Assembly (NCBI GenBank): GCA_016235495.1
Contig: JACRKH010000025.1
Location: 1 to 46,250, forward strand
Length of the DNA stretch: 46,250 bases
Reading direction: 5' to 3'
From: Candidatus Woesearchaeota archaeon
GTDB taxonomy: Archaea > Nanobdellota > Nanobdellia > SCGC-AAA011-G17 > GW2011-AR17
Shown: positions 2,230-43,770 of the stretch, one piece after another
How the letters are laid out: every line of letters starts with the position of its first letter
Position numbering within the stretch: position 1 is the stretch's first letter
Made by a program: the position numbers and the translations under genes
Notes under the pieces: generated by a model
The model's input: only the letters and a program-made list of their open reading frames with translations
The model's database searches: none
Told to the model about the DNA's origin: nothing

Positions 2230-3567
2230 ATGGCAATTGAGTTTTGCGCAATAGGTGGCTATTCTGAAGTAGGAATGAACATGTGCGCATTTAAAATAGG
2301 AAACGATGTAATTATCTGTGATATGGGCTTCTTTCTCCCAGATGTTATAAAACTCCAAGATGAAGAAGTAGTGAAAACAAGTTTAACAAGAGAAGAACTC
2401 ATTCATCTTCATGTTATTCCAAATGATGAAATAATTAAAGAGTGGAGGCCATTAGTGAAAGCAATCATTCTCCCTCACTGTCACTTAGATCATATTGGTG
2501 CAGTGCCATACCTTGCAGAGTTTTATGACTGCCCAATCTATGGTTCACCATACACTATAGAGATTCTCAAAAGCAATCTTCGTGATGAAGGATTAAAAAT
2601 CCCAAATAAATTCAAAGTAATACATGCGAAAGAAAAAGTAAAGCTTTCTAAGGATATAAACTTTGAATTTTCTGCTATACCTCACTCCACCCCTGACACC
2701 ATGCTTGCAATCTTTCACACGCCTGAAGGAGTTATCATCTATGGAAATGATTTCAAACTAGACAATAATCCAACATTAGGTTCAAAACCAGACTATAAAT
2801 TAATGAAAGAAATAGGAGAAGAAGGAGTAAAGTTGCTCATCGTGGATGCACTCTATTCCTATGAAGAAATAAAAACACCTTCAGAACTTGTTGCAAAAGA
2901 AATGCTTAAAGATGTGATGTTAGGCATTGAAAACAAAACAAACTTAGTAATTGTCACAACATTTGCTTCGCATATTGCACGTCTAAAATCTATTATAGAG
3001 TTCGGTAAAAAAATGGATAGAAAAATTGTTTTCTTGGGAAGATCAATGAACAAATACATCGGCGCTGCAGAGAATATTAAAATGGTCAACTTTACAAAAG
3101 ATGTAGAGATGATGCGCTATGGGGAGCAAGTGCGAAAAAAACTGCGAGAAATCCAAAAGAATCCTGGAAAATATCTTGTCATCTGTACTGGTCACCAAGG
3201 TGAACCGCGTTCCATCCTTACAAGAATGGTAACAAAGGATCTCCCCTATGAATTCAGCCCTGGAGATCAGGTTATCTTCGCATGTAAGACTATTCCAGCC
3301 CCAATCAATATAGCAAATCGGGCAGCATTGGAAATAAAATTAAAACAAAAAGGAATTCGCTTTTTCAAAGATATTCACACCTCAGGTCATCTTGCAAGAG
3401 AAGATCATCATGATCTCATTAAAATTCTAAAACCAAAACATATCATTCCAGCGCAGGGAGACATTACGAAGCTTCTCCCACTTGCAGACCTCGCAGAAGA
3501 AATGGGTTATGTGCGAGAAAAAGATGTTCATGTCCTGCATAATGGAGAAATTGCAATTTTAGACTAA
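2230..3567 (+). CDS. rnj: archaeal RNase J (metallo-beta-lactamase / beta-CASP ribonuclease)
   Basis: 445 aa. HCHLDHIGAVPYL is the HxHxDH motif. The C-terminal HTSGHLAREDH is beta-CASP motif C-like. Size matches the short archaeal RNase J. Confidence 0.85.
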   Translation: MAIEFCAIGGYSEVGMNMCAFKIGNDVIICDMGFFLPDVIKLQDEEVVKTSLTREELIHLHVIPNDEIIKEWRPLVKAIILPHCHLDHIGAVPYLAEFYDCPIYGSPYTIEILKSNLRDEGLKIPNKFKVIHAKEKVKLSKDINFEFSAIPHSTPDTMLAIFHTPEGVIIYGNDFKLDNNPTLGSKPDYKLMKEIGEEGVKLLIVDALYSYEEIKTPSELVAKEMLKDVMLGIENKTNLVIVTTFASHIARLKSIIEFGKKMDRKIVFLGRSMNKYIGAAENIKMVNFTKDVEMMRYGEQVRKKLREIQKNPGKYLVICTGHQGEPRSILTRMVTKDLPYEFSPGDQVIFACKTIPAPINIANRAALEIKLKQKGIRFFKDIHTSGHLAREDHHDLIKILKPKHIIPAQGDITKLLPLADLAEEMGYVREKDVHVLHNGEIAILD

Positions 3568-3614: not shown

Positions 3615-3739
3615 TCTAGATTTTTCTGTCAACCCCATGAACATATCCTTCTATCCTCTCAAACATAAAAATGCTATAATGATAATTGCAAAACTATCAA
3701 ACCTAGCAGAAAATATCGAGGGTAGAAGCTAAATACACT

Positions 3740-3814
3740 GCCCTGATAGTGTAGTCCGGCCTATCATGTGGCCCTGTCGAGGCCACGACCCGGGTTCGAA
3801 TCCCGGTCAGGGCG
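3740..3814 (+). tRNA. tRNA-Asp (GUC)
   Basis: Acceptor GCCCTGA/TCAGGGC plus discriminator G. Anticodon arm TGGCC-CTGTCGA-GGCCA. T arm CCGGG-TTCGAAT-CCCGG. D arm GTGTAGTCCGGCCTATCAT is typical of archaeal tRNA-Asp. Confidence 0.9.
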
Positions 3815-3848
3815 TAGGGACCGGTAGCTCAGCTTGGTAGAGCACCTG

Positions 3849-3915
3849 TCAGGGGAGAACAATAATGTATGGGGAGCCTGAAAGGACTCATTATGCATGA
3901 TCAACCCTTGGTGAA
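3849..3915 (+). other. predicted tRNA intron 1 (67 nt, non-canonical position 30/31) with a bulge-helix-bulge junction
   Basis: Central helix CACC(3843-3846)/GGTG(3910-3913). Bulges TG|T (3847-3849) and AA|A (3914-3916). Flanking helices AGAG(3839-3842)/CTTT(3917-3920) and AGGGG(3851-3855)/CCCTT(3905-3909). Confidence 0.6.
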
Positions 3916-3922
3916 ACTTTTA

Positions 3923-3934
3923 TCAAGCAAGGAA
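3923..3934 (+). other. predicted tRNA intron 2 (12 nt, canonical position 37/38), relaxed bulge-helix-bulge
   Basis: Central helix CTTT(3917-3920)/AAGG(3929-3932, includes one G-U pair). Bulges TA|T (3921-3923) and AA|A (3933-3935). The anticodon stem is the inner helix. There is no outer helix, only the loop CAAGC. Confidence 0.5.
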
Positions 3935-4015
3935 ATCAGGTGGTCGCGGGTTCAAATCCCGTCCGGTCCATCATAATAAAAAGGGGTATAAAGGAGACAA
4001 GTGCCAGAGACAAAA

Positions 4016-7541: not shown

Positions 7542-10094
7542 ATGGAAAACATATACAAAAAAATAGATAAGATTAGCTTTAGTCTGTTGTCACCGCAGCA
7601 GATTAAGAAAATGGCACATGTCAAAGTAGTCACGCCAGAACTCTATGATAAAGAGGGATACCCTGTAGAGGGTGGTCTAATGGATACTCGACTTGGAGTT
7701 ATCGATCCTGGTTTGCGATGCCGAACCTGTAATGGAAAATTAAAGGAATGCCCTGGTCACTTTGGATATATTGAACTTGGCCGTCCGGTATTGCATATCA
7801 GTTACATCAAAGCTATTTACACCTTTTTACAAACAACTTGTAAGGAATGTAGTCGCCTCCTTCTCGATGAGGAAAGCACACAGAAATATGCCGCAAAAAT
7901 TGACAAGCTAAAAACTTCAGGAAAGGAAGAACTCATTCCAAAAGTCTGTAAATTAGTGCGAGCAACTGCAAAGACTGTAAAAAAATGCCCTCATTGTAAA
8001 GCAAAACTTACTCCTGTAAAATTTGAAAAACCAAGTACCTTCATGGAAGAAACCAAACGTGTTACTCCTATAGAAATATTGGAACGCTTTGAAAAAATTT
8101 CTGATGCTGATGTCATGCTCATTGGTGTAGACCCAAGATTCGCAAGACCAGAATGGATGGTCATGGGAGTCTTCCCTATCCCTCCAGTAACTATGAGGCC
8201 TTCCATTACCTTAGAATCTGGAGAAAGAGCGGAGGATGATCTCACACACAAACTAAGTGATATAGTCAGAATCAATCAAAGATTATTCGAGAATATTAAT
8301 GCAGGAGCGCCAGAAATTATTGTAGAGGATCTTTGGGATCTTTTGCAGTATCACATTACCACTTTTTTCAACAATGACATAGCACAGGTGCCTCCAGCTC
8401 GTCACAGATCTGGACAGCCATTAAAGACTATTACAGAAAGAATCAAAAGTAAAGAAGGTCGTTTCCGTCATAATCTTGCAGGGAAGAGAGTAAATTATGC
8501 TGCACGTACAGTTATTTCTCCGGATCCAAAGATCGAATTGAATGAAGTAGGAGTGCCAGTCCTTATTGCAATGGAATTAACCGTTCCAGAAAGAGTCACA
8601 GAATGGAACATAGACTGGTTAAAAAAATTCATTAAAAATGGACCAAAGATATACCCTGGAGCAAACTATGTTCTTGATGGAACAAAAAAGAAAAAAATCA
8701 CCTTAGAAACACAAGAAGTTATCCTTGAAGAGCTTGCTCCTGGCCAAATAGTAGAAAGGCATTTACTGGATGGAGATATTTCTATATTTAACAGACAGCC
8801 TTCCCTGCACAGAATGTCTATCATGTGCCACAAAGTTCGCGTCCTTCCAGGAAAATCTTTCCGTCTCAACCCTTCAGTATGTAACCCTTACAATGCAGAT
8901 TTCGATGGGGATGAGATGAATCTCCACATTCCCCAGACTGAAGAAGCTCGTGCAGAAGCAGAAATACTCATGGAAGTAGAAACCCAAATCATGAGTCCAA
9001 AGCACGGTCTCAATGTCATTGGTTGCATTGATGATGCAGTCACAGGAAATTATATTTTAACCAAAGATGAAACTGAATTAACCAAAGAAGATGCAGTTCG
9101 TCTCCTCATTAGTGTTGGGGTAGAAGATTCTGAAACCTTAAATTCCTTAAAAAAGAAAATCTCAGGAAAACAAATTTTTTCTGCAATCCTTCCAAAAGAT
9201 TTCAATTTTGTTCATGATAAAGTTATCATCGAAAATGGGCAGTTAAAGACAGGCCAGATTGATCCAAAGACAATTGGAGAAGGAAACGGAACATTACTCA
9301 GAGATATTCACAGAAACTATTCTGAAGCAGAATGTGTTGACCTTTTTGGAAAAATTTTCAAGTTGGGAATAGCATACTTACAAATAAGAGGGTTTACTAT
9401 TACAACCTCTGATGCAGACATTCCAGAAGAAGTAAGAGAAAAAGCAAGAGCTGTTATTCAGGATGCAATGACTTCGGTAACAGACATCATTGCACAATAC
9501 AAACAAAATAGACTCAAAACATTCTCCGGAAAAACAATGGATGAGACTTTAGAACTCATGGTCATGCAAAAACTGAATGAAACACGTATTTCCATAGGAA
9601 AAATGGTAAGTAAATCAGTCTCAGAAGAGAACAATGCTATTATTATGTCCCGTGCAGGAAAAGGAAACATTATCAACTTAGCGCAAACCTCCATGATTGT
9701 TGGACAGCAAGCACTAAGAGGAAAAAGAATTGAGAGAGGATACAAAAATAGAACCTTATCCTTATTCAAAGAGCATGATAAAAGCCCAGAGGCAAAAGGT
9801 TTTGTTCGTCACAGTTACAAAAATGGGCTCAATCCAGTAGAGTTCTTCTTCCACGCAATGACTGGTCGAGACTCTCTGATGGATACAGCACTGAGAACAC
9901 CTAAATCTGGATACCTTTACAGAAGACTGGCAAATGCATTGCAAGATCTGAAAGTAGAATACGACGGAACAGTGAGAGACGCAAACAAAACTATTGTACA
10001 GTTTGCCTATGGAGACGATCACATTGATGTATCAAAGAGTGAGAATGGAACCATTGATATCAAAAAAATAATTGAGGAAGTAAGTAAGAAATAA
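7542..10094 (+). CDS. rpoA1: DNA-directed RNA polymerase subunit A'
   Basis: 850 aa with zinc motifs [16 protein letters not shown], the catalytic [12 protein letters not shown] motif and [11 protein letters not shown]. Confidence 0.95.
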
Positions 10095-13508: not shown

Positions 13509-15356
13509 ATGACAAAGAATTCTCATCCTAAAAAGGAAGAGCCAGCACAGATAAAACCTGGTGTGGAGCTTCCAAAATTAACAAAAGAACAAGAAGAAAG
13601 AGTAAAAAAAGTAAAAGAAAAGCTCGATAAATTCAAAGAAAAATGCCTTGCAAAAATTGAAGATATTACAGGCATATCTATTCTTCCTCCCATGCCACAA
13701 CAAACGCTTCCTCCAGCTGTTGCAAGAACTGAAGGAGCACAGCCAAACCCTAATGAACTGCAAATTTTCATTCTCATTGACGATGCAAAGGTGGAAGGCC
13801 TTGCAAAAGGAAACCTCATCATAAAAACCACAGATGAAGCAACAAAGATTGCAAAAGAAATTGACGAGCTCTTCAAACCGCAGATTATGCTCATTTCAGA
13901 GCTCAAGGAAGCATGCTTAGATGCAAAGCATGACATTATCCAGATGGTTGCAAGCTCAGCATTAATCCACGACAAAGGACTGCTCTCCGCACTCAAAGTT
14001 GCTGAAGTGCACAAGAACATGTCCATTAAAAAATTCGAAAAATATGTGGTCAGCTACATTGCTGTAGGCTCTTTATTCAGAGGAGATGCAGCTCCCAATG
14101 ACATTGATGTTGCTATTGTGATTGATGATACAGATGTCAAAAAAATGTCCCGCTTTGAACTGAGAGATAAACTGCGCGCCATCATTATCAACATGGGCTA
14201 TGATGCATCAGAAATAACCGGAGTCAGAGCACAGTTCCACATTCAAACCTACATCCTTACAGACTTCTGGGAGAATGTTAAAGATGCAAACCCAGTTATA
14301 TTCACCATGCTCAGAGATGGCGTTCCTTTGTATGATAGAGGAGTCTTCATGCCATGGAAACTTCTCTTGCAGATGGGAAGAATCAAACCTTCACCTGAAG
14401 CAATTGATATGAACATGGAAGTGGGAGACAAACTCATTGATAGAACAAAACAAAAATTACTTTCCGTCGTAGGCGAAGATCTCTTCTACGCAGTCATGAA
14501 TCCTACACAGGCTGCGCTGATGTTGTACGGAATCCCTCCTCCAACTCCTAAAGAAGCAGTAAAGTTAATGGAAGAAATATATGTCAAGAAAGAAAAACTA
14601 TTGGAAAAAAAATATGTAGACATTCTTGAAAAAATTAGAAAAACATTCAAAGCTATTGAACATGGAGAGCTCAAAGAAGTTTCTGGAAAAGATATTGATA
14701 AATTATTGAGTGATTGTAAAGACTACTTGGAAAGAATTAAGAAGCTTTTCAGTGAAATAGAAGAAAGAAATGAAAAAGAAGCAATCCAAGAGATATACAG
14801 CACATCCATGAACCTGACAAGAGACCTTCTTTTGGATGCAGCATACAAAGAAGTAACGGCAAATAAGCTTCCAGAACTCTTTAAAAAATATAGCGAAAGT
14901 GAGAAAATCCCTTTAAAGTATCACAAAATACTGACAGAAATCATCAAAGCAAAGAAAGATTATGATTCTAAAAAAATTAGCAAACAGGAAATGAACAAAG
15001 TCCGCAGAGAAGCAAGAGAATTCATCAGAGCCATCTTGGATCAATTAGACTTCAGAAGAGCAAAGAAACTGGAAAGTGCAAAGCTCAGCTTCCGCTACGG
15101 CACAAAGATGGGCGAGCTGATCATGTTCAAAGAAATAGTTTTTGTCATCAAAGATACGCAGAAAAGAGACGAGCTTTGGACAGCAAACCTTGACAAAGAT
15201 GGCTCTCTTCAGAATCTTAAGAAATCTAACCTTGCCGAGTACGAAAAGTATATAAAGGGAGCAAAAATGCCTCATGATGGAATTATCAAATCCAGAACCT
15301 TGGAATCTCTAAGGCAAATCATGGGTGAGGATATAGACATACTATGGAAGGCATAA
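13509..15356 (+). CDS. Pol-beta-superfamily nucleotidyltransferase domain protein (615 aa) with a K/E-rich N-terminus and a long helical C-terminal region
   Basis: The central block GSLFRGDAAPNDIDVAIVIDD is the G[SG]-x9-13-DxD minimal NTase motif. The rest has no motif I can name. Confidence 0.65.
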   Translation: MTKNSHPKKEEPAQIKPGVELPKLTKEQEERVKKVKEKLDKFKEKCLAKIEDITGISILPPMPQQTLPPAVARTEGAQPNPNELQIFILIDDAKVEGLAKGNLIIKTTDEATKIAKEIDELFKPQIMLISELKEACLDAKHDIIQMVASSALIHDKGLLSALKVAEVHKNMSIKKFEKYVVSYIAVGSLFRGDAAPNDIDVAIVIDDTDVKKMSRFELRDKLRAIIINMGYDASEITGVRAQFHIQTYILTDFWENVKDANPVIFTMLRDGVPLYDRGVFMPWKLLLQMGRIKPSPEAIDMNMEVGDKLIDRTKQKLLSVVGEDLFYAVMNPTQAALMLYGIPPPTPKEAVKLMEEIYVKKEKLLEKKYVDILEKIRKTFKAIEHGELKEVSGKDIDKLLSDCKDYLERIKKLFSEIEERNEKEAIQEIYSTSMNLTRDLLLDAAYKEVTANKLPELFKKYSESEKIPLKYHKILTEIIKAKKDYDSKKISKQEMNKVRREAREFIRAILDQLDFRRAKKLESAKLSFRYGTKMGELIMFKEIVFVIKDTQKRDELWTANLDKDGSLQNLKKSNLAEYEKYIKGAKMPHDGIIKSRTLESLRQIMGEDIDILWKA

Positions 15357-17209: not shown

Positions 17210-18280
17210 ATGAACGTATTCGGCTCTTTGATTGAGAATGCATTGAAGAATGTAGAAACGCCTAGTCATCAAGATACCATTGGTCAGGCAAACATAAAAG
17301 TTATTGGCTGTGGTGGCGGTGGTACAAACGCAACAAACTGGCTCTTTAAAAAAGGAGTCCAAGGTGCAGAGATAGTAGGCATCAACACAGATAAGCAGCA
17401 CTTGGATCTTATTGAAGCAGATAAAAAAATTCTTATAGGAAGAGACTTGACAAGAGGCCTTGGCTGTGGCGGCTTCCCGGAAAAAGGGAGAGAAGCTGCA
17501 AAAGAACAGTTAGGTGAATTAAAAGAAGTCCTTCGTGGGACTGATATGGTATTCATCACTGCAGGTATGGGCGGTGGAACAGGTACAGGATGTGCTCCAG
17601 TGGTTGCACAACTGGCAAAAGAAGAAAAAGCAATTGTCATTGGTGCAGTCACCATGCCCTTTGAGATAGAAAGAGCTCGTATAGAAAAAGCAGAATATGG
17701 TCTGCAGCAATTAAGGGATGTCTGTGATACAGTGATTGTGATTGATAACAACAGACTGGTAAAGATTGCAGGAAATCTCCCCATTCAGCAGGCATTTGCT
17801 GTAGCAAACGAACTTATCTCAACAATGATTAAAGGGATTGTAGAAATTATTGCAGTGCCTTCCTTAGTCAACTTGGATTATGCAGACGTAAAAGCAATCA
17901 TGTCCAATGGAGATGTGTCTGTTATTGGCATTGGAGAATCTGATTCACAGAATAGAGTAGAGGAAGCAGTAAAGAGAGCATTATCCAACCCTCTTCTCGA
18001 AGTAAGCTACGAAGGTGCAACAGGAGCATTGATCCACGTTGCTGGCGGAGATGACCTTACTTTAGATGAAGTAAACAGAGTAGGGGATATGATCACGCAG
18101 GCTTTGGATGAAGATGCAAATGTTATCTGGGGTGCAAGAATCTCTGGAGACATGAAAGGCAAGCTTCGTGTCATGACCATTATCACTGGAGTAACCTCTC
18201 CATATGTGATGGGAAAAGGCAAAGCAAGAAAAGACAACTCCAAAGCTATGTCCAACAGCTTGGGCATTGACTTCTTCTAA
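17210..18280 (+). CDS. ftsZ: cell division GTPase FtsZ (paralog 1)
   Basis: GCGGGGTNATN and the tubulin signature GMGGGTGTGCAPVVA. C-terminal peptide LGIDFF. GGGAGG (17195-17200) lies 9 nt upstream of the ATG. Confidence 0.95.
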   Translation: MNVFGSLIENALKNVETPSHQDTIGQANIKVIGCGGGGTNATNWLFKKGVQGAEIVGINTDKQHLDLIEADKKILIGRDLTRGLGCGGFPEKGREAAKEQLGELKEVLRGTDMVFITAGMGGGTGTGCAPVVAQLAKEEKAIVIGAVTMPFEIERARIEKAEYGLQQLRDVCDTVIVIDNNRLVKIAGNLPIQQAFAVANELISTMIKGIVEIIAVPSLVNLDYADVKAIMSNGDVSVIGIGESDSQNRVEEAVKRALSNPLLEVSYEGATGALIHVAGGDDLTLDEVNRVGDMITQALDEDANVIWGARISGDMKGKLRVMTIITGVTSPYVMGKGKARKDNSKAMSNSLGIDFF

Positions 18281-20800: not shown

Positions 20801-22099
20801 TTATGGCTTATACCTCAGCATAGTGCGAGGGAAAGGAATAGCATCCTTAATGCTCTCTAACCCGCAAATCCAAGAAACAATGCGCTCCACACCCATGCCA
20901 AAGCCCCCATGAGGCACGGAGCCATACCTTCTTGTATCTAAATAGAAATCATAATCCCTTGGATTCTCACCCTGCTTCCTTAAATTATCCTCAATCTTTT
21001 TAATATCCTCTTCTCTTTGCGAAGCCCCCACAATTTCTCCATAACGCTCTGGTGCAATAATATCAAAGCCAAGAACAACTTTAGAATTTTCTGGGTCTTC
21101 TTTCATGTAAAAAGCCTTCACTACTTTGGGATATCCTGTAATAATCACAGGGGTGTCATGCCATTCAGAAAGCTTGTCTTCTTCAACAGTACGCAAATCT
21201 TTACCCCACTCCACTTTCATCTTCGCTTTCTTCTCAAGCTCCTTCAAAATATCTGTATAAGTTGTTCGCGGAAAAGCTTTCTTCACTGTAGGCTCTAACT
21301 TCTTTGGATCCCTTTCTAGAATCTTCAACTCCTCTTTATTTGTTTCTAAGACTGCCTTCACACAAGCCTTAATCAGACCTTCAGCATGATCCTGAATATC
21401 TTCAAACCTTGACCAAGCCATCTCCATCTCTGCATGCCAGTACTCAGTAAGATGCCGTGAAGTTTTTGATTTTTCTGCTCGAAAAGAAGGAGCAAGCGTA
21501 TAAATTTTTTCTAAGGAAAAGATTGCAGGCTCTGCTTGCAGCTGCCAAGTCTGTGCTAGGAACACATGACCCCCAAAGTAAGGCACCTTAAAGACTTCAC
21601 TTCCCCCTTCTGCCTGTGTTGGCTGAAAAATAGGACTTTGATACTCATAGAAGCCATGAGCTCTAAAATACTGATGAATTGCGCCAAAGATAGTGCTTCG
21701 TATCTTCAAAATAGCAGTCATCCTTCGTGAGCGCAGCCATAAATGCCTGTTATCTGCTAAGAACTCCACACTCTGATCCTTTTGAATAGGAAAATTATCA
21801 CACGCACCAACAACATGCAAGTCTGAGACAACAACTTCATAGCCAGTAGGAGCACGTTCATCTTTTTTTATGTCTCCATGTAGTTCCAAAGAAGTTTCTA
21901 TTTTCACACTCTCTGCTTCTTTCCACACTTTCTCAGAAACCTTATCCTTCTCAAGAACACACTGAATAATATTGGAAGAATCCCTTAGTGTAATAAATCG
22001 TAATTTATTCGAACCTCTTTCTCGGTAGCACCAGCCATGCAAAGAGACTTTACCCTTTCCCTGTTTGATGGCATCCTGAATAGAAATGTATGCTGTCAT
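20801..22099 (-). CDS. asnS: asparaginyl-tRNA synthetase (class IIb)
   Basis: FRAEKSKTSRHLTEYWHAEMEMAW is AsnRS-type motif 2 (the Trp after the RHL.E block). The C-terminal GGFGMGVERIV is motif 3. The ATG at 22099 (MTAYISIQD) is preferred over the listed 22150 because a TATA-like TTATTTAAA lies about 25 nt upstream. Confidence 0.85.
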   Translation of the reverse strand: MTAYISIQDAIKQGKGKVSLHGWCYRERGSNKLRFITLRDSSNIIQCVLEKDKVSEKVWKEAESVKIETSLELHGDIKKDERAPTGYEVVVSDLHVVGACDNFPIQKDQSVEFLADNRHLWLRSRRMTAILKIRSTIFGAIHQYFRAHGFYEYQSPIFQPTQAEGGSEVFKVPYFGGHVFLAQTWQLQAEPAIFSLEKIYTLAPSFRAEKSKTSRHLTEYWHAEMEMAWSRFEDIQDHAEGLIKACVKAVLETNKEELKILERDPKKLEPTVKKAFPRTTYTDILKELEKKAKMKVEWGKDLRTVEEDKLSEWHDTPVIITGYPKVVKAFYMKEDPENSKVVLGFDIIAPERYGEIVGASQREEDIKKIEDNLRKQGENPRDYDFYLDTRRYGSVPHGGFGMGVERIVSWICGLESIKDAIPFPRTMLRYKP

Positions 22100-22185
22100 A
22101 GAAGAAATAATTTTCTCTGAATTTAAATAAGTAACGGTAAGAGACAACAAAAACCTTTTTAAACCTCTATAAAACCCAAAACACC

Positions 22186-23280
22186 ATGTTCAGTATTATA
22201 AAAGAACAAGGAAACGCAAGAGTAGGCATACTGCAGACAGTGCATGGAGAGGTAGAAACACCCTTCTTCATGCCCGTCGCCACAAGGGCAGTAGGCCGCT
22301 TTGTCTCTACAGAGGATTACATAGAAGCAGGAGCAAAAGTTCTCATAGCAAACGCCTTCCTTCTCTCTTTATCCCCTGGACTAGAAACTTTTGAAAAAAT
22401 GAAAGGCATTCACAATTTCATGCGCTACCCAGGAATTATTTTCACAGACTGTGGGGGCTTCCAAATGCTAAGAGAAAATCTTATGCAGGACACCACTACC
22501 AATGGCATCAAATTCAAAACCCCAGAGGGTCAGGAAGTTTTCATGCGCCCAGAAAAAGTCATGCACATAGGAGAAACTATTGGATCTGATGTAATCATGG
22601 CCTTAGATTGTGTCTTACCATATGGAAAAACAAAAGAAGAATATCTTGAAGCAATGGAAAAGTCACATCGCTGGACCAAGAAATGCAAAGAACTGCATAA
22701 AGGAAAACAATTATTATTTGGTATCACACAGGGAGGAACTTTCCCGGACTTAAGAGAACAAAGTGCAAGAATAATTAATGAGCTAGACTTTGACGGGAAT
22801 GCTATTGGAGGTATTGGCATTGGGGAGCCCACAGAAGTGCTCTACAAAGTAGTAGAAGCATCTATTCCTCATCTCAATAAAAACAAACCCAGATATGTCA
22901 TGGGGCTGGGAAAACCAGAACAAATCATTGAATGCGTAGAACGTGGTATTGACATTTTTGATAGCATCTACCCGCAAAAGAATGCACGGCATGGGATGTT
23001 ATTTACCTTCAATGGCATTCTCGACCTAGGAAAAGAAATATACAAATATGATGAAAGTCCTATAGAGAAAGATTGTAAATGTTTTTCATGTAAAACATTC
23101 TCTAAGGCATACCTCAGATATTTGTTAAAAAAAGAAGATCCTGTGGGAAAAAGATACTTGACTATTCACAATCTCTACTTCATGCAGGAATTCATGAAAA
23201 AAATAAGAGAAAGTATCAAAGAAGGAGCATTTCAGGAATTCAAAAAAGATTTTCTCAGCAAACATAAAAAGCTACAATAA
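22186..23280 (+). CDS. tgtA: archaeosine-type tRNA-guanine transglycosylase, catalytic domain only (364 aa, no C-terminal PUA region)
   Basis: TDCGGFQM, GGIGIGEP, YVMGLGKPEQI..GIDIFDS, and the zinc site CKCFSCK...IHNL. Confidence 0.85.
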   Translation: MFSIIKEQGNARVGILQTVHGEVETPFFMPVATRAVGRFVSTEDYIEAGAKVLIANAFLLSLSPGLETFEKMKGIHNFMRYPGIIFTDCGGFQMLRENLMQDTTTNGIKFKTPEGQEVFMRPEKVMHIGETIGSDVIMALDCVLPYGKTKEEYLEAMEKSHRWTKKCKELHKGKQLLFGITQGGTFPDLREQSARIINELDFDGNAIGGIGIGEPTEVLYKVVEASIPHLNKNKPRYVMGLGKPEQIIECVERGIDIFDSIYPQKNARHGMLFTFNGILDLGKEIYKYDESPIEKDCKCFSCKTFSKAYLRYLLKKEDPVGKRYLTIHNLYFMQEFMKKIRESIKEGAFQEFKKDFLSKHKKLQ

Positions 23281-23332
23281 AAGAAGAGAATTTTGAAGTC
23301 GCAATTTACGACCACAAGTCTATTGAAAAATA

Positions 23333-24655
23333 TTAAGGAGTGAGACGCTCTGGATCTCGTGGAAGCAAAATAGCCTCTCGAATATTCCCCAGCTGCAGCA
23401 TTTGTTCGGTAATCCTATCCAGCCCTAAACCCACACCGCCATGAGGAGGGCAGCCATATCTAAAAATATCTCTATAGAAAGGCATCAAGGTCAAATCAAT
23501 TCCTTTCTCCATTGCTTGTGCTTCAAGAACTTGTAGCCTATGCTCTCTTTGCGCGCCAGTAGCAATCTCCACGCCATTGTACACCAAATCAAAAGACTTC
23601 GTTACTTTCTTATCCTTCTCAGGCCTCATATGATAGAAGGGTCTTTTCTCCCAAGGATAATCAAGCATAAACACAAAATCACTCTGTAACTTTTCTTTGA
23701 TATAATGAGCAATCATTTTCTCCCCATCAGCATCAAGATCTTCATTCTCAGGAACAATCTTTCCTAATTTCTTCAATATATTCCTTGCTTCATGCATGGA
23801 GAGTTTTGGAATTGTTTTAGGAACATGCAAATCCACACCTAAACGAGCCAATTCTTCTCTGCAGGATTTTTTAATTTCTGTAATCAAATAAACAAAATAC
23901 TTTTCAACAATAGTCATGACATCATGCTCATCACGAATAAAGCCCATCTCAAAATCAACACCAGTAAATTCAGTAAGATGCCTTGTCGTGTGTGACTTCT
24001 CCGCTCGGAAAACAGTTCCAAGTTCATACACTTTCTCCAACCCAGAAACAACAAACATCTGCTTGTAAATCTGAGGACTCTGCGCAAGAGAAGCAGTCTT
24101 TCCAAAATAAGGAATTTTAAACTCTTCAGCGCCAGACTCGACACCAGAAGCAGTCAATTTAGGAGTTTGAATATTAATGAACCCCTCTTTCTCAAAAAAA
24201 GCAACAGTCGTGCTGTAAATTTTTGAACGCACCGTAAAAATATCAGTCACTCTTTGCCTTCGCACATCTAAAAACCTGTAATCCAACCTCTTATCCAAAC
24301 CAGTCGTAGTCTCCTCAGCAATTTCAATAGGCAGAGGAGTTTCAGCCATATTCAGAACTTCAACAGAAGCAGCAGCAACTTCAACTGCACCAGTCTTCAT
24401 TTCTTTTTTAACTTGATTCTCAGGCCTTTTATTAACAAGACCTTTGACAAGAACAACAGACTGTGGTTTGAGATACTGATTTGCTTCCGCTAATTTTTTA
24501 TCTAAGAATACTTGAACAATCCCACTTCTATCCCTAAGCAATAAGAATCCTATCTTCCCACTGATTCGTACAGTGTCCACCCATCCAGCAAGAACAACTT
24601 CTTTTCCTGAAACAGAAGCATTCAAGTCCCCGCAATGATGTGTTCGCATAGACAA
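23333..24655 (-). CDS. aspS: aspartyl-tRNA synthetase (archaeal/eukaryotic type)
   Basis: FRAEKSHTTRHLTEFTGVDFEMGF (motif 2), an N-terminal OB anticodon-binding domain, and GGVGLGLDRIT (motif 3). Confidence 0.9.
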   Translation of the reverse strand: MSMRTHHCGDLNASVSGKEVVLAGWVDTVRISGKIGFLLLRDRSGIVQVFLDKKLAEANQYLKPQSVVLVKGLVNKRPENQVKKEMKTGAVEVAAASVEVLNMAETPLPIEIAEETTTGLDKRLDYRFLDVRRQRVTDIFTVRSKIYSTTVAFFEKEGFINIQTPKLTASGVESGAEEFKIPYFGKTASLAQSPQIYKQMFVVSGLEKVYELGTVFRAEKSHTTRHLTEFTGVDFEMGFIRDEHDVMTIVEKYFVYLITEIKKSCREELARLGVDLHVPKTIPKLSMHEARNILKKLGKIVPENEDLDADGEKMIAHYIKEKLQSDFVFMLDYPWEKRPFYHMRPEKDKKVTKSFDLVYNGVEIATGAQREHRLQVLEAQAMEKGIDLTLMPFYRDIFRYGCPPHGGVGLGLDRITEQMLQLGNIREAILLPRDPERLTP

Positions 24656-24670
24656 TAGAAAATAATAAAG

Positions 24671-24680
24671 ATTTATAAGC
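24671..24680 (-). promoter_or_regulatory. TATA-like box for aspS
   Basis: GCTTATAAAT on the minus strand lies about 20 nt upstream of ATG 24655. Confidence 0.45.
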
Positions 24681-25028
24681 TTTGTTGTGAACTACCCCGG
24701 GCTAAAGCCCGTGGCATCATCACAAACTATCTAGCCATACTGCTATTGTAATTGAAAAGGGTTCTCTGCTGTTTGTCTTGTTTCTCCCAATGTTTTGCTT
24801 GTCCATCTTCTCATACTTTTTTACAGTTGTTGCGGTAACTGCACCATGGTTTGATAAAAATAACCTCCTCATTCGGAATGCAAGAACTCTTAAGCTCACA
24901 GAAGGATCATTAGATAATATTTTAATGGTGCCAAAAGAAGAAGACTAAAGCTTATTTTTAGCAAAAACAACATTCATTTAGAGAATAATTTCGAAGAATT
25001 TATAAGGTTGCAATCCTCTTACCATTTC

Positions 25029-25385
25029 ATGATTTCGTATCCAAGTGTCAATAAAATTATTGAGCTTAACTTCCTAGTTTTGAGTGTCATAGTTGTAAAG
25101 AAAGCTGATAGACCAGAAATTCTAAGTCATGTAAAGATCTCTAGTGCGCTGAAGCATTGTGAGAACTTTGAGGGAGATTTATACGATAAAGCAGCTACTT
25201 TAATGAAAGCCTTAATTAAAAATCATGCTTTTGCCAGTGGTAATAGAAGAACTGCTTTTATCGCTACAAAATATTTCCTCAAAATAAATAATGGAAAGTT
25301 TAAAATACCTAATGATCCTTTATCTGCAAAGGTTATGCAGGGCATCCGTGAAGAATATTATTCTCACGAAGAAATTAAAGAATAG
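25029..25385 (+). CDS. doc: Doc (death-on-curing) / Fic-fold family toxin
   Basis: KAATLMKALIKNHAFASGNRRTAFIATKYFLKINNGKF matches the Doc core H.F.(D/S)(A/G)N(K/R)R.A. The ATG at 25029 is about 25 nt downstream of TATA-like AATTTATAAGG (24997-25007). The listed ORF begins at TTG 25008. Confidence 0.7.
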   Translation: MISYPSVNKIIELNFLVLSVIVVKKADRPEILSHVKISSALKHCENFEGDLYDKAATLMKALIKNHAFASGNRRTAFIATKYFLKINNGKFKIPNDPLSAKVMQGIREEYYSHEEIKE

Positions 25386-25392
25386 ATTAAAA

Positions 25393-25512
25393 ATGGGAAA
25401 ATCAAAAAATTTACAAGATAGGAAAAGTAAAATCGTAATTGAGGAAATAAAGAAATTTAATGATTTAATCAAAGGCCATCAAAAGCTATTAAGAGAAATT
25501 GGTTCTCTTTAG
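25393..25512 (+). CDS. 39-aa basic helical mini-ORF 7 nt downstream of doc (speculative antitoxin or partner)
   Basis: MGKSKNLQDRKSKIVIEEIKKFNDLIKGHQKLLREIGSL, tightly spaced after the doc stop. There is no homology evidence. Confidence 0.25.
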   Translation: MGKSKNLQDRKSKIVIEEIKKFNDLIKGHQKLLREIGSL

Positions 25513-25517
25513 AACAA

Positions 25518-26057
25518 CTATTTCCCAGAAATATCCAGCAATAACTGCTCTAACTTCTGCAGATTCCACTTAATAGAATCAGACTTTTGCCGCAAAGTGC
25601 CATTGCGCAAATCAAGCAGTAAGAATTTTCCATAAATCTCTTCCACCAATGCAGTAATCTCCCTTGCACCACCATAATTCTTCTGTATAACATCTTTCAC
25701 AGCCTTCCTCAAAAGTTCTCCGGTCAGATCACAGAGTCCCATAAGATAATTCTCTGTATCAACTTTCAATTCTTCTTTGTTAGGAATTCTTTTCTCATGA
25801 ATAAAGTAATAAAAACAAGCAGCTTCAACATACTCTTGCACAGCAGTATTCTCAATGCCAGTAGCAGATTCTCTTTCCAACTGCTCTATCAAAGATTCAA
25901 TCTTCTCAAGGCTAGTCTTCTCCCCTCTTTGTAAAGAATAAATCACAACTTTAGACTCTCGAATAATATCTCGAGACAGCTGAATAAGCAATTCTCTTCG
26001 TTCATCTGCAGCATGCAGTTCTTCAATAATTCCATTGAAATCTTTATCTAAAATCAT
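25518..26057 (-). CDS. translin-family protein (tentative)
   Basis: An all-helical protein of about 179 aa. NYLMGLCDLTGELLRKAV resembles the translin/TRAX motif (Y..G..D..GEL.R). The start at 26057 (MILDKDF) is preferred, because the listed N-terminal extension is hydrophobic junk overlapping the divergent gene. Confidence 0.5.
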   Translation of the reverse strand: MILDKDFNGIIEELHAADERRELLIQLSRDIIRESKVVIYSLQRGEKTSLEKIESLIEQLERESATGIENTAVQEYVEAACFYYFIHEKRIPNKEELKVDTENYLMGLCDLTGELLRKAVKDVIQKNYGGAREITALVEEIYGKFLLLDLRNGTLRQKSDSIKWNLQKLEQLLLDISGK

Positions 26058-26204
26058 AGAAAAAATGAGTAAGAAGTCATTTATAAAGCTATGTACCTCC
26101 AAATTAAAGGAGACTTTCACCAAAGATATCTCCCAAGGCTCATAAAGAGAGAAATTTTTCAACAAAAGCATAAGGTATAAAAAGAAAAGGAATACAAAAC
26201 ACAC

Positions 26205-26735
26205 ATGGAACCATTTGTGCATGCATTAATACCATTAGCATTTCTTCTCGCACTCTTCCCAAATCTTGATAAAAAATATATCTTCTACCTTGTTCCCATC
26301 GTTTGGATAATTGATCTTGACACTTTTATAGGCCTTCACAGGTTCACTTTTCATAATCTGACATTCATCCTTGCTCTTGCAGGGATAGCATATATCATTT
26401 TCAGAAACAGAACTGCATTTTGGGTGGCATGCTACTATGGAATATCTCACCTCATCCTCGACTTAGCACTGCCAGGAGTAGCATTCTTCTACCCCTTCTA
26501 CCAGAAAACATTCTATCTTAATTTCAGCCTGACAAGAGTAACGCAGTGGATTGTTGATATCAGCGCAGGAACATTATCCCTAGACCAGTTCCAAGCATTG
26601 CTTCCAGGATGGACAGAAAAAACCTACATAGGCGAAGCATCAATTTTATTTATTATTCTTTTTGCAATAATTTTACTCGTTCGTTATAAAAAAGAAATAA
26701 AAGAAACCACACAAAAATGGATAAACATCAAATAA
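26205..26735 (+). CDS. DUF457 / YdjM-like membrane-bound metal-dependent hydrolase
   Basis: Multi-TM protein with IIDLDTFIGLHRFTFHNL, resembling the DUF457 motif (PD.D....HRg.tHs). Confidence 0.55.
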   Translation: MEPFVHALIPLAFLLALFPNLDKKYIFYLVPIVWIIDLDTFIGLHRFTFHNLTFILALAGIAYIIFRNRTAFWVACYYGISHLILDLALPGVAFFYPFYQKTFYLNFSLTRVTQWIVDISAGTLSLDQFQALLPGWTEKTYIGEASILFIILFAIILLVRYKKEIKETTQKWINIK

Positions 26736-27325
26736 AAAAACAGGAAGAAAATAAAAGATTTTTTGGAAATTGGGCAGCTACCTACGATTTTTCATTATTT
26801 CAGTGGTGGATGAGAGGATTCTGGAGGGAACTAAAAAAGAGCCTTATACTTTCGAAAGAAACAAAACTATTAGATATCAGCTGTGGAACAGGAGAGCTAT
26901 TAAAAGAGCTCCAAGGAAAAGCTCATCTCACAGGGCTTGATTTTTCAGAGGAAATGCTTGAAAAAGCAAGAAAAAAACTAGCAAAAGGTGTTGAACTAAA
27001 GCAAGCTGATGTACATGAACTTCCCTTCAAAGAAGACACATTTGATATAGTTATAAGCACAGAAGCCTTTCACCATTACTATGACCAGGAAAAAGCAATA
27101 AAAGAAATGATGAGGGTGACCAAAAAAGGAGGAAAAGTGATGATCTCAGATATTAATTTTTTCTCTAAAGCCCTTCACTATCTCTTTGAAAAACTTGAAC
27201 CAGGATGTGTAAAAGTAAATTCGAAAAAAGAAATGCACGGCCTTTTTAAGAAAGCAGGTTTAAAGAACATCACACAAAAAAGATCCTTCATTTTTGCAGT
27301 GCTCACCATTGGAGAAAAATCTTAG
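26717..27325 (+). CDS. class I SAM-dependent methyltransferase (Methyltransf_11-like)
   Basis: LLDISCGTGELL (motif I), TGLDFSEEML and FDIVISTEAFHH are typical UbiE/type-11 methyltransferase blocks. Confidence 0.8.
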   Translation: MDKHQIKKQEENKRFFGNWAATYDFSLFQWWMRGFWRELKKSLILSKETKLLDISCGTGELLKELQGKAHLTGLDFSEEMLEKARKKLAKGVELKQADVHELPFKEDTFDIVISTEAFHHYYDQEKAIKEMMRVTKKGGKVMISDINFFSKALHYLFEKLEPGCVKVNSKKEMHGLFKKAGLKNITQKRSFIFAVLTIGEKS

Positions 27326-27876
27326 CTATCTATTCGAAGCCGAGGCCATAATTTCTTCCATTTTTTCATCTTCATTCTTTCCTTATAGTCTGCAAGCGCT
27401 TCAGCTTGCTGAGAACTCGGACCTACATGAAAAGTAAATAAATCCTTCAAGCCATAAGGGGCGCAAATAGTCAAAGAATCATCCTTCTCTAATCGCACAC
27501 CGACACAGGTAGGCACTTCAATAAAACTTGCTATCCCCATGCAAGCACTTTGTATTCCTTTTTTTGCAGGATAATACTCATGAATAAATGCTTGATTCAC
27601 CACTTCAAAAGTCTGTGAAGGATGCAATGCATGTAATCTCTTTTCAACAGCTTTGTCATTAATTTTTTTCCTCGCATCAAAATACACAACATCAATATCA
27701 TTTAAAGGATGTCTTTGCTCATAACCAGAAAGCACATCCCACACAGTATTTCGAATCACCCCTGCAGCAAGATACCAGTCTGGTAAATCCAGTTCACGAA
27801 CAGAACGAAGAATATCTATAAGCCATTTTTCTTGAAGAATAATTTTCTTTAAAGCCTTGTTATAATCTTTCTCCAT
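27322..27876 (-). CDS. nucleotidyltransferase family protein (NTP_transf_6-like)
   Basis: WYLAAGVIRNTVWD ... NDIDVVYFD resembles PF06042-type nucleotidyltransferases. It abuts the gatE-like stop with no spacer. Confidence 0.55.
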   Translation of the reverse strand: MEKDYNKALKKIILQEKWLIDILRSVRELDLPDWYLAAGVIRNTVWDVLSGYEQRHPLNDIDVVYFDARKKINDKAVEKRLHALHPSQTFEVVNQAFIHEYYPAKKGIQSACMGIASFIEVPTCVGVRLEKDDSLTICAPYGLKDLFTFHVGPSSQQAEALADYKERMKMKKWKKLWPRLRIDS

Positions 27877-29289
27877 TTAACTCAGCTTCTTCAAAAGCTC
27901 CATAACCTTTTTTCCATCAACTTTCCCACGAAGCTGTTTCATTGCTTCTCCCATAAGAGCATTGAGAGGAGCGCCTTTATTTTCATGAATAATTTTTTTA
28001 ATAACTTTCTCAACTTCATCCTCATCAACAGGAGCATATTTCTGCAAATCAATCTTTTCTTTTTTCAATAAAGAAACGAGAATATCGAGGACAGCTTCCT
28101 TAGCAATTTTCTTCTCAGTTAAAAGCCCAAAAACCATATCAAAATCTTTTTCATGCAGCACACCTTCAAGACCAAATCTAGCCTGGATTTCTTTAGGCAT
28201 ACTTACGAGACACTGCACAATAAAAGAAGCATCCAGTAAAGGATATTTTCTTAAAAACAACTCAAATGCAACATCCTCTCGAACAAGCATTCTTGCAAGA
28301 TCACTATTCAGCCCATACTCTCTTTCAAAACGAAGAGCTTTTTCATCCAACAATTCAGGAAGGACTATACTTTGTACTAATTCTTTACTTAAAATAATCA
28401 AAGGGACATCTGTCTCAGGGTACATCCGTGCTGCACCAGGCATAGGTCGCAAATAATCAGAGCTTCCATCAGCATTCACCTTTCGTACATGTGCAATCCC
28501 TTTCTTGCCTTCACCCTGCTGTCTCTTCACTTCTTCATCAATAACTTTTGGCATGTATCGTAATTCTTGAAAGCCCTTCAGCTCCACACGAGGATGCCCA
28601 GTAATCGAAAGGTTCACATCCTGTCGAATTGTCCCTAATCCCCTCTTCACTTTCCCAGTGCTTCGTAGAATCATCCCTAAAAGAGCAGCAGTCTCCTTTG
28701 CATGCTCTGGGTCTTGAATACTCGCATCAGTCGCAATTTCAACAAGTGCAACACCAAGTCTATCTAATCGAAAACGAACACTATCTTCTTTTGCTTCAAT
28801 CTTTTTTGCAGCTTCTTCTTCCAGACACACACTAGAAACAGCAACTTTCCCTAGAGAAGTCTCTACATAGCCATCTACTGCAATTAACGCGGTTCGTTGA
28901 AAACCAGAAACATTGCTTCCATCAACCACAGTCTTTCGCATGAAATGCACTTCACTCACAGGCTTCGCATGCAAAAGCAAGGCAACCTCTAAAGCAATCT
29001 TCAATGCATCATGATTCACAGGATGTGGCGGCTCTTCATCAAACTCAACTAAACAAGAAGAACTCGGGCAGGCTTCATACTGAAAAGTTTTTCCTTTTTC
29101 CATCTCATAGGCAGCAGCTTTATCAACAACACCAGTCTCTCCTGCAGCAGCACGTAACTTTCTTTCAAAGAAAATTGTAGGCTCATGCTCATCATTCACT
29201 AAAGAAGGGCACTGGCAGAATAATTTATGGCTTTCTATCTGTTGGTGTGCCTCCAACCCACATTTAAAACCTAAGTCTTTGTAATTCAT
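27877..29289 (-). CDS. gatE: GatE-like Glu-tRNA(Gln) amidotransferase subunit (GatB/GatE family), short form of 470 aa
   Basis: GLEAHQQI..HKLFCQCP, CLVEFDEEPPH and MRKTVVDGSNVSGFQRT are GatE-like blocks. The C-terminal GatB/YqeY-type tail is LNALMGEAMKQLRGKVDGKKV. Confidence 0.75.
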   Translation of the reverse strand: MNYKDLGFKCGLEAHQQIESHKLFCQCPSLVNDEHEPTIFFERKLRAAAGETGVVDKAAAYEMEKGKTFQYEACPSSSCLVEFDEEPPHPVNHDALKIALEVALLLHAKPVSEVHFMRKTVVDGSNVSGFQRTALIAVDGYVETSLGKVAVSSVCLEEEAAKKIEAKEDSVRFRLDRLGVALVEIATDASIQDPEHAKETAALLGMILRSTGKVKRGLGTIRQDVNLSITGHPRVELKGFQELRYMPKVIDEEVKRQQGEGKKGIAHVRKVNADGSSDYLRPMPGAARMYPETDVPLIILSKELVQSIVLPELLDEKALRFEREYGLNSDLARMLVREDVAFELFLRKYPLLDASFIVQCLVSMPKEIQARFGLEGVLHEKDFDMVFGLLTEKKIAKEAVLDILVSLLKKEKIDLQKYAPVDEDEVEKVIKKIIHENKGAPLNALMGEAMKQLRGKVDGKKVMELLKKLS

Positions 29290-29328
29290 AAAGAAAAAGA
29301 AGAGGAATTGCTTTAAATATCTTATGCC

Positions 29329-30150: not shown

Positions 30151-30243
30151 ATTGAAAAACAAAGAAGGAGAGATTAAATACCTTACTGCTCTAATCTTTT
30201 AAAAAACAACAGCCTTATAAAGCACCTAAATCTCAAAAATTAG

Positions 30244-43621: not shown

Positions 43622-43694
43622 GGGATTGTGGGCTAACTTGGTAGACTTTCGGGTTTGGGACCCGACGATCCCGGTTCAAATCCGGGCAATCTCA
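43622..43694 (+). tRNA. tRNA-Pro (UGG)
   Basis: Acceptor GGGATTG/CAATCTC (G2-U71 wobble) plus A73. Anticodon arm TCGGG-TTTGGGA-CCCGA. T arm CCCGG-TTCAAAT-CCGGG. TATA-like GTATTTAAAC lies about 25 nt upstream. Confidence 0.8.
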
Positions 43695-43770
43695 CCTTCC
43701 TAAAAATTTTTAAAGTCCAATAAAACAGCTTTCTCACCATAACAAAAATTCCAAAGGAAGCCCCGAAAGA

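Follow-up and report, generated by a model that had tools for sequence, protein, structure and literature searches.

A woesearchaeal tRNA-Lys(UUU) gene with two adjacent introns whose predicted splicing folds exclude each other

A tRNA-Lys(UUU) gene interrupted twice

The DNA analysed here, referred to as the window, is a stretch of 46,250 nucleotides (nt) from contig JACRKH010000025.1 of a Candidatus Woesearchaeota archaeon, and it harbours a tRNA-Lys(UUU) gene interrupted by two introns, one at the non-canonical position 30/31 (intron 1) and the other at the canonical position 37/38 (intron 2). The features of this locus are collected in Table 1. The Rfam tRNA covariance model covered exactly the interval of the gene, with a score of 49.9 bits (gathering score, 29), and its positions 1–71 were aligned with every arm intact and with 88 nt inserted within the anticodon arm. 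No CCA end is encoded. After in-silico removal of both introns, the spliced product was 74 nt long and was called tRNA-Lys(ttt) by ARAGORN, its anticodon arm CCUGA/CUUUUAA/UCAGG comprising a 5-bp stem and a 7-nt loop with U33, the anticodon UUU and A37. The identity, extent, intron positions and splice junctions had been proposed in an original prediction made from the letters of the window, and they proved to be correct: the covariance model assigned no different layout, and the same two-intron layout, yielding tRNA-Lys(ttt) upon splicing, was found in 15 other genomes. In the window itself, A3922 and A3934 are equivalent, so that intron 2 could be placed in two ways that differ by 1 nt; the orthologs L005, L009 and L019 settled it at 37/38.

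Table 1. Coordinates of the tRNA-Lys(UUU) locus in the window, its predicted pairing elements and the related tRNA-Lys(CUU) genes (L numbers denote loci)
Feature	Position	Strand	Description	Basis
tRNA-Asp(GUC), intron-less	3739-3815	+	2-3 nt upstream of tRNA-Lys	Rfam/ARAGORN
tRNA-Lys(UUU) gene	3818-3970	+	153 nt	Rfam RF00005 match
Exon 1	3818-3848	+	tRNA positions 1-30: acceptor 5' strand, D arm, position 26, anticodon-stem 27-30 CCUG	Rfam alignment and splice parse
Intron 1	3849-3915	+	67 nt; position 30/31; 3' end GGUGAA	Ortholog presence/absence
Exon 2 (micro-exon ACUUUUA)	3916-3922	+	7 nt; positions 31-37 including anticodon UUU	
Intron 2	3923-3934	+	12 nt; position 37/38; 5' half UCAAGC, 3' half AAGG+AA	
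Exon 3	3935-3970	+	Positions 38-73: anticodon-stem 3' strand, variable loop, T arm, acceptor 3' strand, discriminator A	
Intron-1 central helix, 5' strand	3843-3846	+	C25 A26 C27 C28; pairs with 3910-3913	Minimum free energy fold
Intron-1 central helix, 3' strand GGUG	3910-3913	+	Followed by unpaired AA^AC 3914-3917, the 3' splice site (^ marks the cut)	
Intron-1 outer helix, 5' strand	3832-3842	+	D-loop GCUUGGU, A21, G22-G24; pairs with 3918-3928, 11 bp	Minimum free energy fold, covariation, RNAalifold
Intron-1 outer helix, 3' strand	3918-3928	+	U33-A37 of exon 2 and first 6 nt of intron 2 (UCAAGC)	
Intron-1 internal hairpin	3851-3908	+	Inner helix 3851-3854/3905-3908, further pairs up to 3879/3883	Minimum free energy fold
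Intron-2 central helix, 5' strand	3917-3920	+	C32 U33 U34 U35; pairs with 3929-3932; overlaps intron-1 outer helix	
Intron-2 central helix, 3' strand AAGG	3929-3932	+	Followed by bulge AA^A 3933-3935	
Anticodon-stem 3' strand U39-G43	3936-3940	+	Predicted to pair with 3845-3848 and 3916 only after intron-1 removal; flanking helix of motif 2	
tRNA-Lys(CUU) genes	L083, L088-L090, L092, L094, L102, L103, L108, L109, L113-L115, L117-L123		On metagenome contigs	

With its default settings, ARAGORN reported no gene at 3818-3970, and excision of just one of the introns led to no acceptable tRNA, the calls being 'tRNA-???', Ser or Stop. In its intron mode, the program reported for the window a tRNA-Phe(GAA) with an 81-nt intron at 33/34, which would imply a single long intron and another isotype. 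However, this candidate has a shifted anticodon stem, into which A26-U44 is recruited, and C instead of U33. Moreover, the same procedure gave seven isotypes (Leu, Ser, Val, Phe, Ile, Arg and Cys) in the close orthologs, whereas the two-intron parse gave tRNA-Lys(ttt) in 16 out of 16, and the intronless orthologs at the same position are tRNA-Lys(UUU). The tRNA-Phe(GAA) candidate was therefore rejected on its defective arm and on the comparative data, and a single-intron reading in general is given a negligible probability.

To compare the gene across relatives, 80 Woesearchaeota/Pacearchaeota loci were retrieved via RpoB''. A syntenic tRNA-Lys(UUU) gene upstream of rpoH appeared in many of them, with a variable intron state. 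The gene is intronless in L010, L011, L012 and several more distant genomes; it has the 37/38 intron only in L014, L026, L040, L041 and others; and both introns are present in 16 genomes (the window, L001-L009, L013, L015, L016, L019, L034 and L047). In each of these 16 genes, intron 1 occupies position 30/31, measures 12-108 nt and ends in GGUGAA, GAUGAA or AGUGAA, while intron 2 lies at 37/38 and is 12-18 nt long; exon 2 is invariant. Intron 1 is precisely absent from the syntenic genes of L010-L012, L014, L026, L040 and L041, and the mature RNA of the window is identical to the intronless genes at 68 out of 74 positions (L011) and 65 out of 74 (L010). The splice junctions are thus fixed by comparison, since relatives have no intron, the 37/38 intron only, or both at the same positions. 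None of the 33 typed UUU loci presented intron 1 without intron 2. In a rough neighbour-joining tree of RpoB'', the intronless L010-L012 and the intron-2-only L014 are nested in a clade in which all other members have two introns, which implies that introns were lost secondarily and precisely; two-intron genes are also found in another, more distant clade.

Sequence variation further points to selection acting on the spliced RNA. In particular, pair 30:40, which spans both introns, is changed in a compensatory manner from G-C to C-G in L001 and L005. Furthermore, a strain variant from another groundwater sample (contig of run X2), collinear with the window over 3739-3982, carried eight substitutions, mostly A/G transitions, all of them in intron 1 (3859-3903) and none in the exons, intron 2 or tRNA-Asp (P = 2e-5). 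These observations bear on the explanation that the gene is a decaying pseudogene and that an intact tRNA-Lys(UUU) elsewhere does the work. A second copy is possible outside the window, and the failure of default ARAGORN to report the gene would fit such decay. Nevertheless, the exons are invariant or compensatorily changed over 16 genomes while the introns have diverged past detection by BLAST, the strain-variant changes are confined to intron 1, the helices of the splice motifs are conserved and covarying (see below), and the same syntenic slot holds an intronless tRNA-Lys(UUU) in relatives, all of which makes a pseudogene very unlikely. A chimeric join within the tRNA, arising from assembly or binning, would be conceivable for a metagenomic source, in which tRNA regions draw fragments from many organisms; the DNA runs matched at this locus were indeed mostly tRNA fragments of other organisms, only contigs X2 and X3 being informative. 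However, an identical architecture was found in 15 other independently assembled genomes, the X2 contig is collinear across the gene and contig X3 spans 3650-3886, so that an artefact has next to no probability.

Regarding the nature of the introns, intron 1 was matched only by itself when the window and all fetched loci were searched with BLAST, which gives no hint of mobility or repetition. The lengths of 67 and 12 nt do not correspond to group I introns, which extend over hundreds of nt, and no match to this class appeared in Rfam even at E<=1. When 3700-4000 was scanned permissively with Rfam, the introns matched no further RNA family, and a credible C/D-box match did not appear either.

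Splice motifs and the predicted order of removal

The unconstrained minimum free energy (MFE) fold of the 153-nt precursor (-53.9 kcal/mol, z = -2.7) keeps the acceptor and T arms, and the remainder forms a rod. The central helix that had been proposed for intron 1, CACC/GGTG, was present in this fold, and it is paired and covarying in the orthologs, being fully paired in 15 out of 16 (98% of cells), with C-G, U-G and U-A variants. The 3' site of intron 1 is a bulge of 3-4 nt, AA^A(C), in all orthologs. In the MFE fold of the window, a 4x1 internal loop contains the 5' site (UG^UC, 3847-3850, opposite U3909), whereas in the orthologs this site is mostly a bulge of 2-6 nt, in some a small internal loop and, in the 12-nt introns of L006 and L007, a hairpin loop. 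Likewise, orthologs with longer introns have an inner helix, which those two 12-nt introns lack, and for the 18-nt intron of L016 the constrained fold had only 2 bp, a 4-bp AGUU/AACU helix being drawable by eye. Intron 1 thus does not show the strict hBHBh' form, in which two 3-nt bulges are flanked by helices; because the geometry of its 5' site varies, the motif is considered a relaxed bulge-helix-bulge (BHB) or BHL one.

An outer helix AGAG/CTTT had also been proposed for intron 1. Such a helix exists, but the register was off by one, and it is really an 11-bp helix that reaches into intron 2. By joining the D-loop and the 3' strand of the D-stem to exon 2 and to intron 2, this helix is new relative to the original prediction. 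The covariation of the rod was examined in fixed-length junction constructs of 14 distinct orthologs (alignment A1), with partner-slide and 500-shuffle controls. The rod was 91.4% paired in these, compared with at most 50.5% when slid; six pairs had changed on both sides, and none of the 500 shuffles reached the observed covariation, although these statistics ignore kinship among the genomes. The same rod was found unprompted by RNAalifold. In orthologs whose D-loops differ in sequence or length (L013, L015, L016 and L034), the start of intron 2 is altered to match, and the duplex between D-loop and intron 2 was predicted at -9 to -12 kcal/mol for cognate pairs vs. approximately -4 to -6 kcal/mol for non-cognate ones. 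This complementarity was significant in 13 of the 14 distinct two-intron genes, while of seven intron-2-only genes, L014 showed it clearly and L041 marginally.

As for intron 2, the proposed central helix CUUU/AAGG, with the anticodon stem as flanking helix, was found to be paired across the orthologs. The partner of C32-U35 varies (AAGG, GAGG, GAAG, AGAG or AAAG), and pairing holds in 95% of the cells of this helix; it is complete (100%) in the anticodon stem and amounts to 97.6% for both together, compared with at most 57% when slid. The five nucleotides CAAGC are all that stands between the 5' bulge and the central helix. No intron-internal helix closes the 5' bulge, and since a 12-nt intron is too short for one, the 5' site falls in an 8-nt hairpin loop; the motif is accordingly modelled as a relaxed hBH/BHL form.

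Each of the four predicted cuts lies exactly 2 nt 3' of a strand of one of the two 4-bp central helices (3843-46/3910-13 and 3917-20/3929-32). Cuts placed 2 nt 3' of the strands of a 4-bp helix are a hallmark of the substrates of the archaeal splicing endonuclease (EndA). The chance of such a spacing is approximately (6/16)^4 = 0.02 for one intron, assuming uniform base composition. All four cuts had been expected after the second nucleotide of a 3-nt bulge; the 2-nt spacing held, while the clean bulges did not at the 5' sites, which occupy the 4x1 loop of intron 1 and the 8-nt loop of intron 2.

The two motifs cannot coexist because they share nucleotides: motif 2 uses 3917-3920 and the anticodon stem (3845-3848 and 3916, paired with 3936-3940), and motif 1 uses 3918-3920 and 3843-3846. 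The mutual exclusivity noticed in the original prediction was therefore borne out, covariation supporting each fold. However, an obligatory order of splicing, which had been drawn from it, does not follow from exclusivity alone, and the order rests on separate in-silico folding with an energy model that leaves out tertiary structure and protein binding. In the window precursor, pairing probabilities (P) were 0.56 for the motif-1 central helix and 0.67 for the D-loop:intron-2 pairing, vs. 0.23 for the anticodon stem and 0.007 for the motif-2 helix, and forcing the cloverleaf together with motif 2 cost 7-9.5 kcal/mol. Once intron 1 was removed, the anticodon stem rose to 1.00 and the D-loop:intron-2 pairing fell to 0.002; when intron 2 was removed first, the motif-1 helix had a P of 0.02. 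The orthologs behaved similarly. P of the motif-2 helix was at most 0.08 in all 16 precursors and that of the anticodon stem at most 0.36 in 15 of them, the latter reaching at least 0.98 in 13 out of 16 after removal of intron 1. With intron 2 removed first, the motif-1 helix stayed at or below 0.04 in 12 out of 16, the exceptions being L005 and L016 (both 0.60), L034 (0.19) and L019 (0.09). The modelled folds thus favour the removal of intron 1 before intron 2.

A stray contig from a DNA run, with an apparent tRNA-Lys(CUU) carrying a 12-nt intron at 30/31, was the starting point for a scan of metagenome contigs with the pattern GAGCAYCTS-N(6-36)-RRTGAAACTCTTA, which allows all four combinations at the pair of position 27 with its partner. 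A total of 43 stretches matched. Of these, 23 lay in non-tRNA DNA, matched by chance and were set aside, and 20 were non-redundant tRNA genes with an intron of 12-38 nt at exactly 30/31, ending in GGUGAA or GAUGAA. Since these 20 CUU genes share it, the 30/31 intron is a feature of the tRNA-Lys family and not of one gene. After in-silico splicing, 17 were called tRNA-Lys(ctt); the other three (L102, L115 and L123) appear to bear a third intron in the T arm, besides those at 30/31 and 37/38, and ARAGORN failed on them after removal of two introns. In this independent set, the pair of position 27 with its partner in the intron-1 central helix was C-G in 14 genes, U-A in five, U-G in one and C-A in none (Fisher's test, 4e-4, ignoring kinship).

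Eleven of the 20 CUU genes have the 30/31 intron only. Their precursors form the same rod, with a central-helix P of 0.8-0.99 and a 3-nt bulge AA^A, and their outer helix AGAG/CUCU is fully Watson-Crick, the D-loop pairing with the 3' strand of the anticodon stem. In CUU genes with intron 2 (e.g. L092 and L120), the 5' end of that intron takes over as partner of the D-loop, and in UUU genes the corresponding outer helix AGAG/CUUU contains two G.U pairs. Together with the fact that no UUU gene had intron 1 alone, this would agree with intron 2 making up, through its 5' half, for the weak outer helix of the UUU genes.

From these folds, the following course may be proposed. Initially, the precursor would keep its acceptor and T arms, while the D arm and the anticodon region would fold into the rod; the D-loop and the D-stem 3' strand would form the outer helix, their partners being exon 2 and intron 2's 5' half, and C25-C28 would pair with the GGUG at the 3' end of intron 1, leaving both intron-1 sites 2 nt 3' of the helix in a relaxed bulge-helix-bulge. 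EndA would then cleave, and a tRNA ligase would link position 30 to position 31. Next, the rod would lose its basis, allowing the anticodon stem (27-31/39-43) and the D stem to form and C32-U35 to pair with the AAGG of intron 2 in the second motif, a relaxed hBH/BHL form, from which intron 2 would finally be excised. Simultaneous cutting at the four sites would release the 7-nt exon, and exclusive folds would thus protect it.

Several results weigh against this ordered course. Even without intron 2, the folding of L005 and L016 yields motif 1, and 11 CUU genes lack intron 2 altogether, so that the dependence of the 30/31 intron on intron 2 is not universal. The motif-2 central helix stays weak even after removal of intron 1 (P of 0.00-0.47), and P of the intron-1 helix in the precursor is low in L002, L003, L004, L015 and L034 (0.04-0.27). 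In L014, the complement of the D-loop is kept despite the absence of intron 1, which may be a relic. Moreover, the order observed for the pre-tRNA-Glu(UUC) of Methanopyrus kandleri is the opposite, the canonical intron being excised first (PMC5829648), and the neglect of kinship in the covariation statistics has to be counted here as well. Metatranscriptomes from the site of a Saanich Inlet relative gave no reads over the Lys gene, and no RNA run containing the window locus was found. Furthermore, no EndA was detected in a Pfam scan of 50 open reading frames (ORFs) of the window, nor by tblastn of the window and the fetched loci with an M. jannaschii EndA sequence as query; the specificity of the enzyme is therefore taken from the literature.

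Several of these points would be explained if both introns were real but EndA cut whichever motif happens to form, the complementarity between the D-loop and intron 2 being incidental or otherwise used. The prediction for L005 and L016, the CUU genes that cope with intron 1 alone, the complement retained in L014 and the M. kandleri precedent would all agree with this, as would the blindness of the energy model to tertiary contacts and bound proteins. However, the D-loop:intron-2 duplex covaries and its presence tracks that of intron 1; intron 1 was never seen without intron 2 in a UUU gene; and the anticodon stem that motif 2 needs is improbable in 15 of the 16 precursors. An unordered removal is hence held to be rather unlikely. 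The gene, its junctions, their conservation and the covariation of both folds are directly supported by the data, and we infer from them EndA cleavage, the removal order and the protection of the micro-exon. Overall, 3818-3970 is probably a functional woesearchaeal tRNA-Lys(UUU) gene with two EndA-type introns that have mutually exclusive folds and would be removed in the order intron 1, then intron 2. More tentatively, and with somewhat less than even confidence, the two introns may be a reciprocal pair, in which intron 2, its 5' half having evolved into the partner of the D-loop, would let EndA recognize intron 1 in UUU genes with their weakened outer helix, and intron 1 would block the anticodon stem, so that the switch would enforce the order and protect the micro-exon and would be conserved in the tRNA-Lys of Woesearchaeota and related DPANN.

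Genomic neighbourhood and other disrupted tRNA genes

The window has a G+C content of ~37%, its locus occurs in groundwater metagenomes, and its RpoB'' is 80-91% identical to that of genomes labelled Candidatus Woesearchaeota or Nanoarchaeota; a lookup of this exact protein returned no record. Downstream of tRNA-Lys are found rpoH (ATG at 4016), the split rpoB''/rpoB', rpoA'', L30e, NusA, S12 and S7, and the arrangement Asp-Lys-rpoH is conserved in relatives; the 850-aa ORF at 7542-10094 is presumably rpoA', judging by its position. Approximately 170 nt upstream of the tRNA-Asp/tRNA-Lys pair ends an RNase J-like beta-CASP metallo-beta-lactamase nuclease gene (2230-3567, + strand). Directly after the S12 and S7 genes lies a 615-aa ORF (13509-15356, + strand) without any Pfam match, in the slot that is usually occupied by EF-2 in archaeal operons.

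A run of tRNA-related genes spans 20801-30162. Two of them, on the minus strand, encode class II aminoacyl-tRNA synthetases of the Asp/Lys/Asn type (20801-22150 and 23333-24655); the others encode a tRNA-guanine transglycosylase (22186-23280), a protein resembling GatB/GatE (27877-29289) and a dihydrouridine synthase (29329-30162). Two paralogues of FtsZ and a homologue of SepF were found within 28 kb (17210-18280, 37591-38694 and 44851-45255). In addition, the ORF at 42787-43584 showed a weak match, below the Pfam cut-off, to a homing-endonuclease-associated HNH repeat, and an intron-less tRNA-Pro(UGG) (43622-43696) starts 38 nt after it.

Among the relatives, other tRNA genes with introns were noticed. 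The intron-2-only tRNA-Lys(UUU) genes L014:3644-3733 and L041:216-304 have an intron that starts with a near-perfect complement of their own D-loop, and the MFE fold of L014 is an alternative rod instead of a cloverleaf; the complement would be left over from a lost intron 1, or else it would have a function of its own. Moreover, tRNA-Asp is intron-bearing in several relatives (L015:283-388, L021-L023 and L045), the intron of L015 being placed at a non-canonical position 3' of an intact anticodon arm, and nearby tRNA-Tyr genes of L030, L033, L044-L046 and L051 contain introns of ~50 nt. Disrupted tRNA genes thus look common in this lineage.

Implications and comparison with known systems

Only Cren-, Eury- and Thaumarchaeota entered the training of the BHB models in tRNAscan-SE 2.0 (PMC8450103), and incomplete tRNA sets were noted in DPANN genomes by Kaneta et al., who urged manual curation (PMC5829648). 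A conserved family of tRNA-Lys genes with the 30/31 intron helps to explain apparently missing tRNA-Lys genes in DPANN bins and supplies training examples. The 36 natural variants (16 UUU and 20 CUU), in which the length of intron 1 varies from 12 to 108 nt, intron 2 may be present or absent and helices covary, constitute a ready mutational series for the recognition of relaxed motifs by DPANN EndAs and for the question of whether RNA folding encodes the splicing order. Furthermore, the nested losses, of both introns or of intron 1 only, bear on the gain and loss of tRNA introns.

Archaeal tRNAs with multiple introns, non-canonical positions, relaxed hBH, HBh' and BHL motifs and sequential removal are established (PMC4033280, PMC3978253, PMC6379350, PMC8450103), and closely spaced introns may require sequential removal (PMC8450103, PMC3978253). 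The literature search, in which only two papers brought Woesearchaeota and tRNA introns together, yielded no gene-level description of a tRNA-Lys family with a 30/31 intron in Woesearchaeota and, as far as found, no earlier description of an intron acting in cis as a structural cofactor for the removal of another among archaeal tRNA introns. Intron 2 resembles the canonical 37/38 introns of the hBH form in its position, in the 4-bp helix between C32-U35 and the intron, in its 3-nt 3' bulge AA^A and in the flanking anticodon stem. Unlike these, its 12 nt include no internal helix, its 5' site lies in an 8-nt loop and its 5' half is complementary to the D-loop.

EndAs of the (alpha-beta)2 and epsilon2 types cleave relaxed motifs (PMC5829648). 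In DPANN, loop-bearing EndAs are found, namely epsilon2 in ARMAN-2 and alpha4 with an L3 loop in others (PMC3488258, PMC5829648), the latter being associated with more disrupted tRNA genes in a survey that included one Woesearchaeota genome (PMC5829648). The present gene belongs to the same superphylum as these disrupted tRNAs, in which non-canonical and multiple introns are reported by Kaneta et al. to be commoner where EndA has an extra loop; however, their survey gives, in the part available, proportions only and no gene-level description (PMC5829648), whereas a conserved tRNA-Lys 30/31 family and its precursor fold are described here.

For the pre-tRNA-Glu(UUC) of M. kandleri, which has one canonical and one D-loop intron, sequential removal was observed (Kaneta et al. 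2018, PMC5829648). Both precursors combine a canonical intron at 37/38 with a relaxed non-canonical one; the motifs are separate in M. kandleri, where the canonical intron is excised first, whereas here the motifs overlap and the non-canonical intron is predicted to be removed first. A further parallel is offered by the multi-intron tRNAs described from Crenarchaeota/Thermoproteales (Sugahara et al. 2007, 2008; Tocchini-Valentini et al. 2009, cited in PMC3978253, PMC4033280 and PMC8450103), which also have at least two EndA-type introns per gene, one of them non-canonical, with strict or relaxed BHB motifs; in them, the last motif can form only once the preceding intron has gone, as is predicted for motif 2 here. 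In contrast to those introns, which are described as nested (PMC3978253), the woesearchaeal ones are not nested but lie side by side with the 7-nt exon 3916-3922 between them, their dependence appears to be reciprocal, as motif 1 borrows sequence from intron 2, and the lineage is DPANN rather than TACK. Multi-intron archaeal tRNAs with ordered removal are already known, and the ordering mechanism proposed for this tRNA-Lys is possibly a new variant of them.

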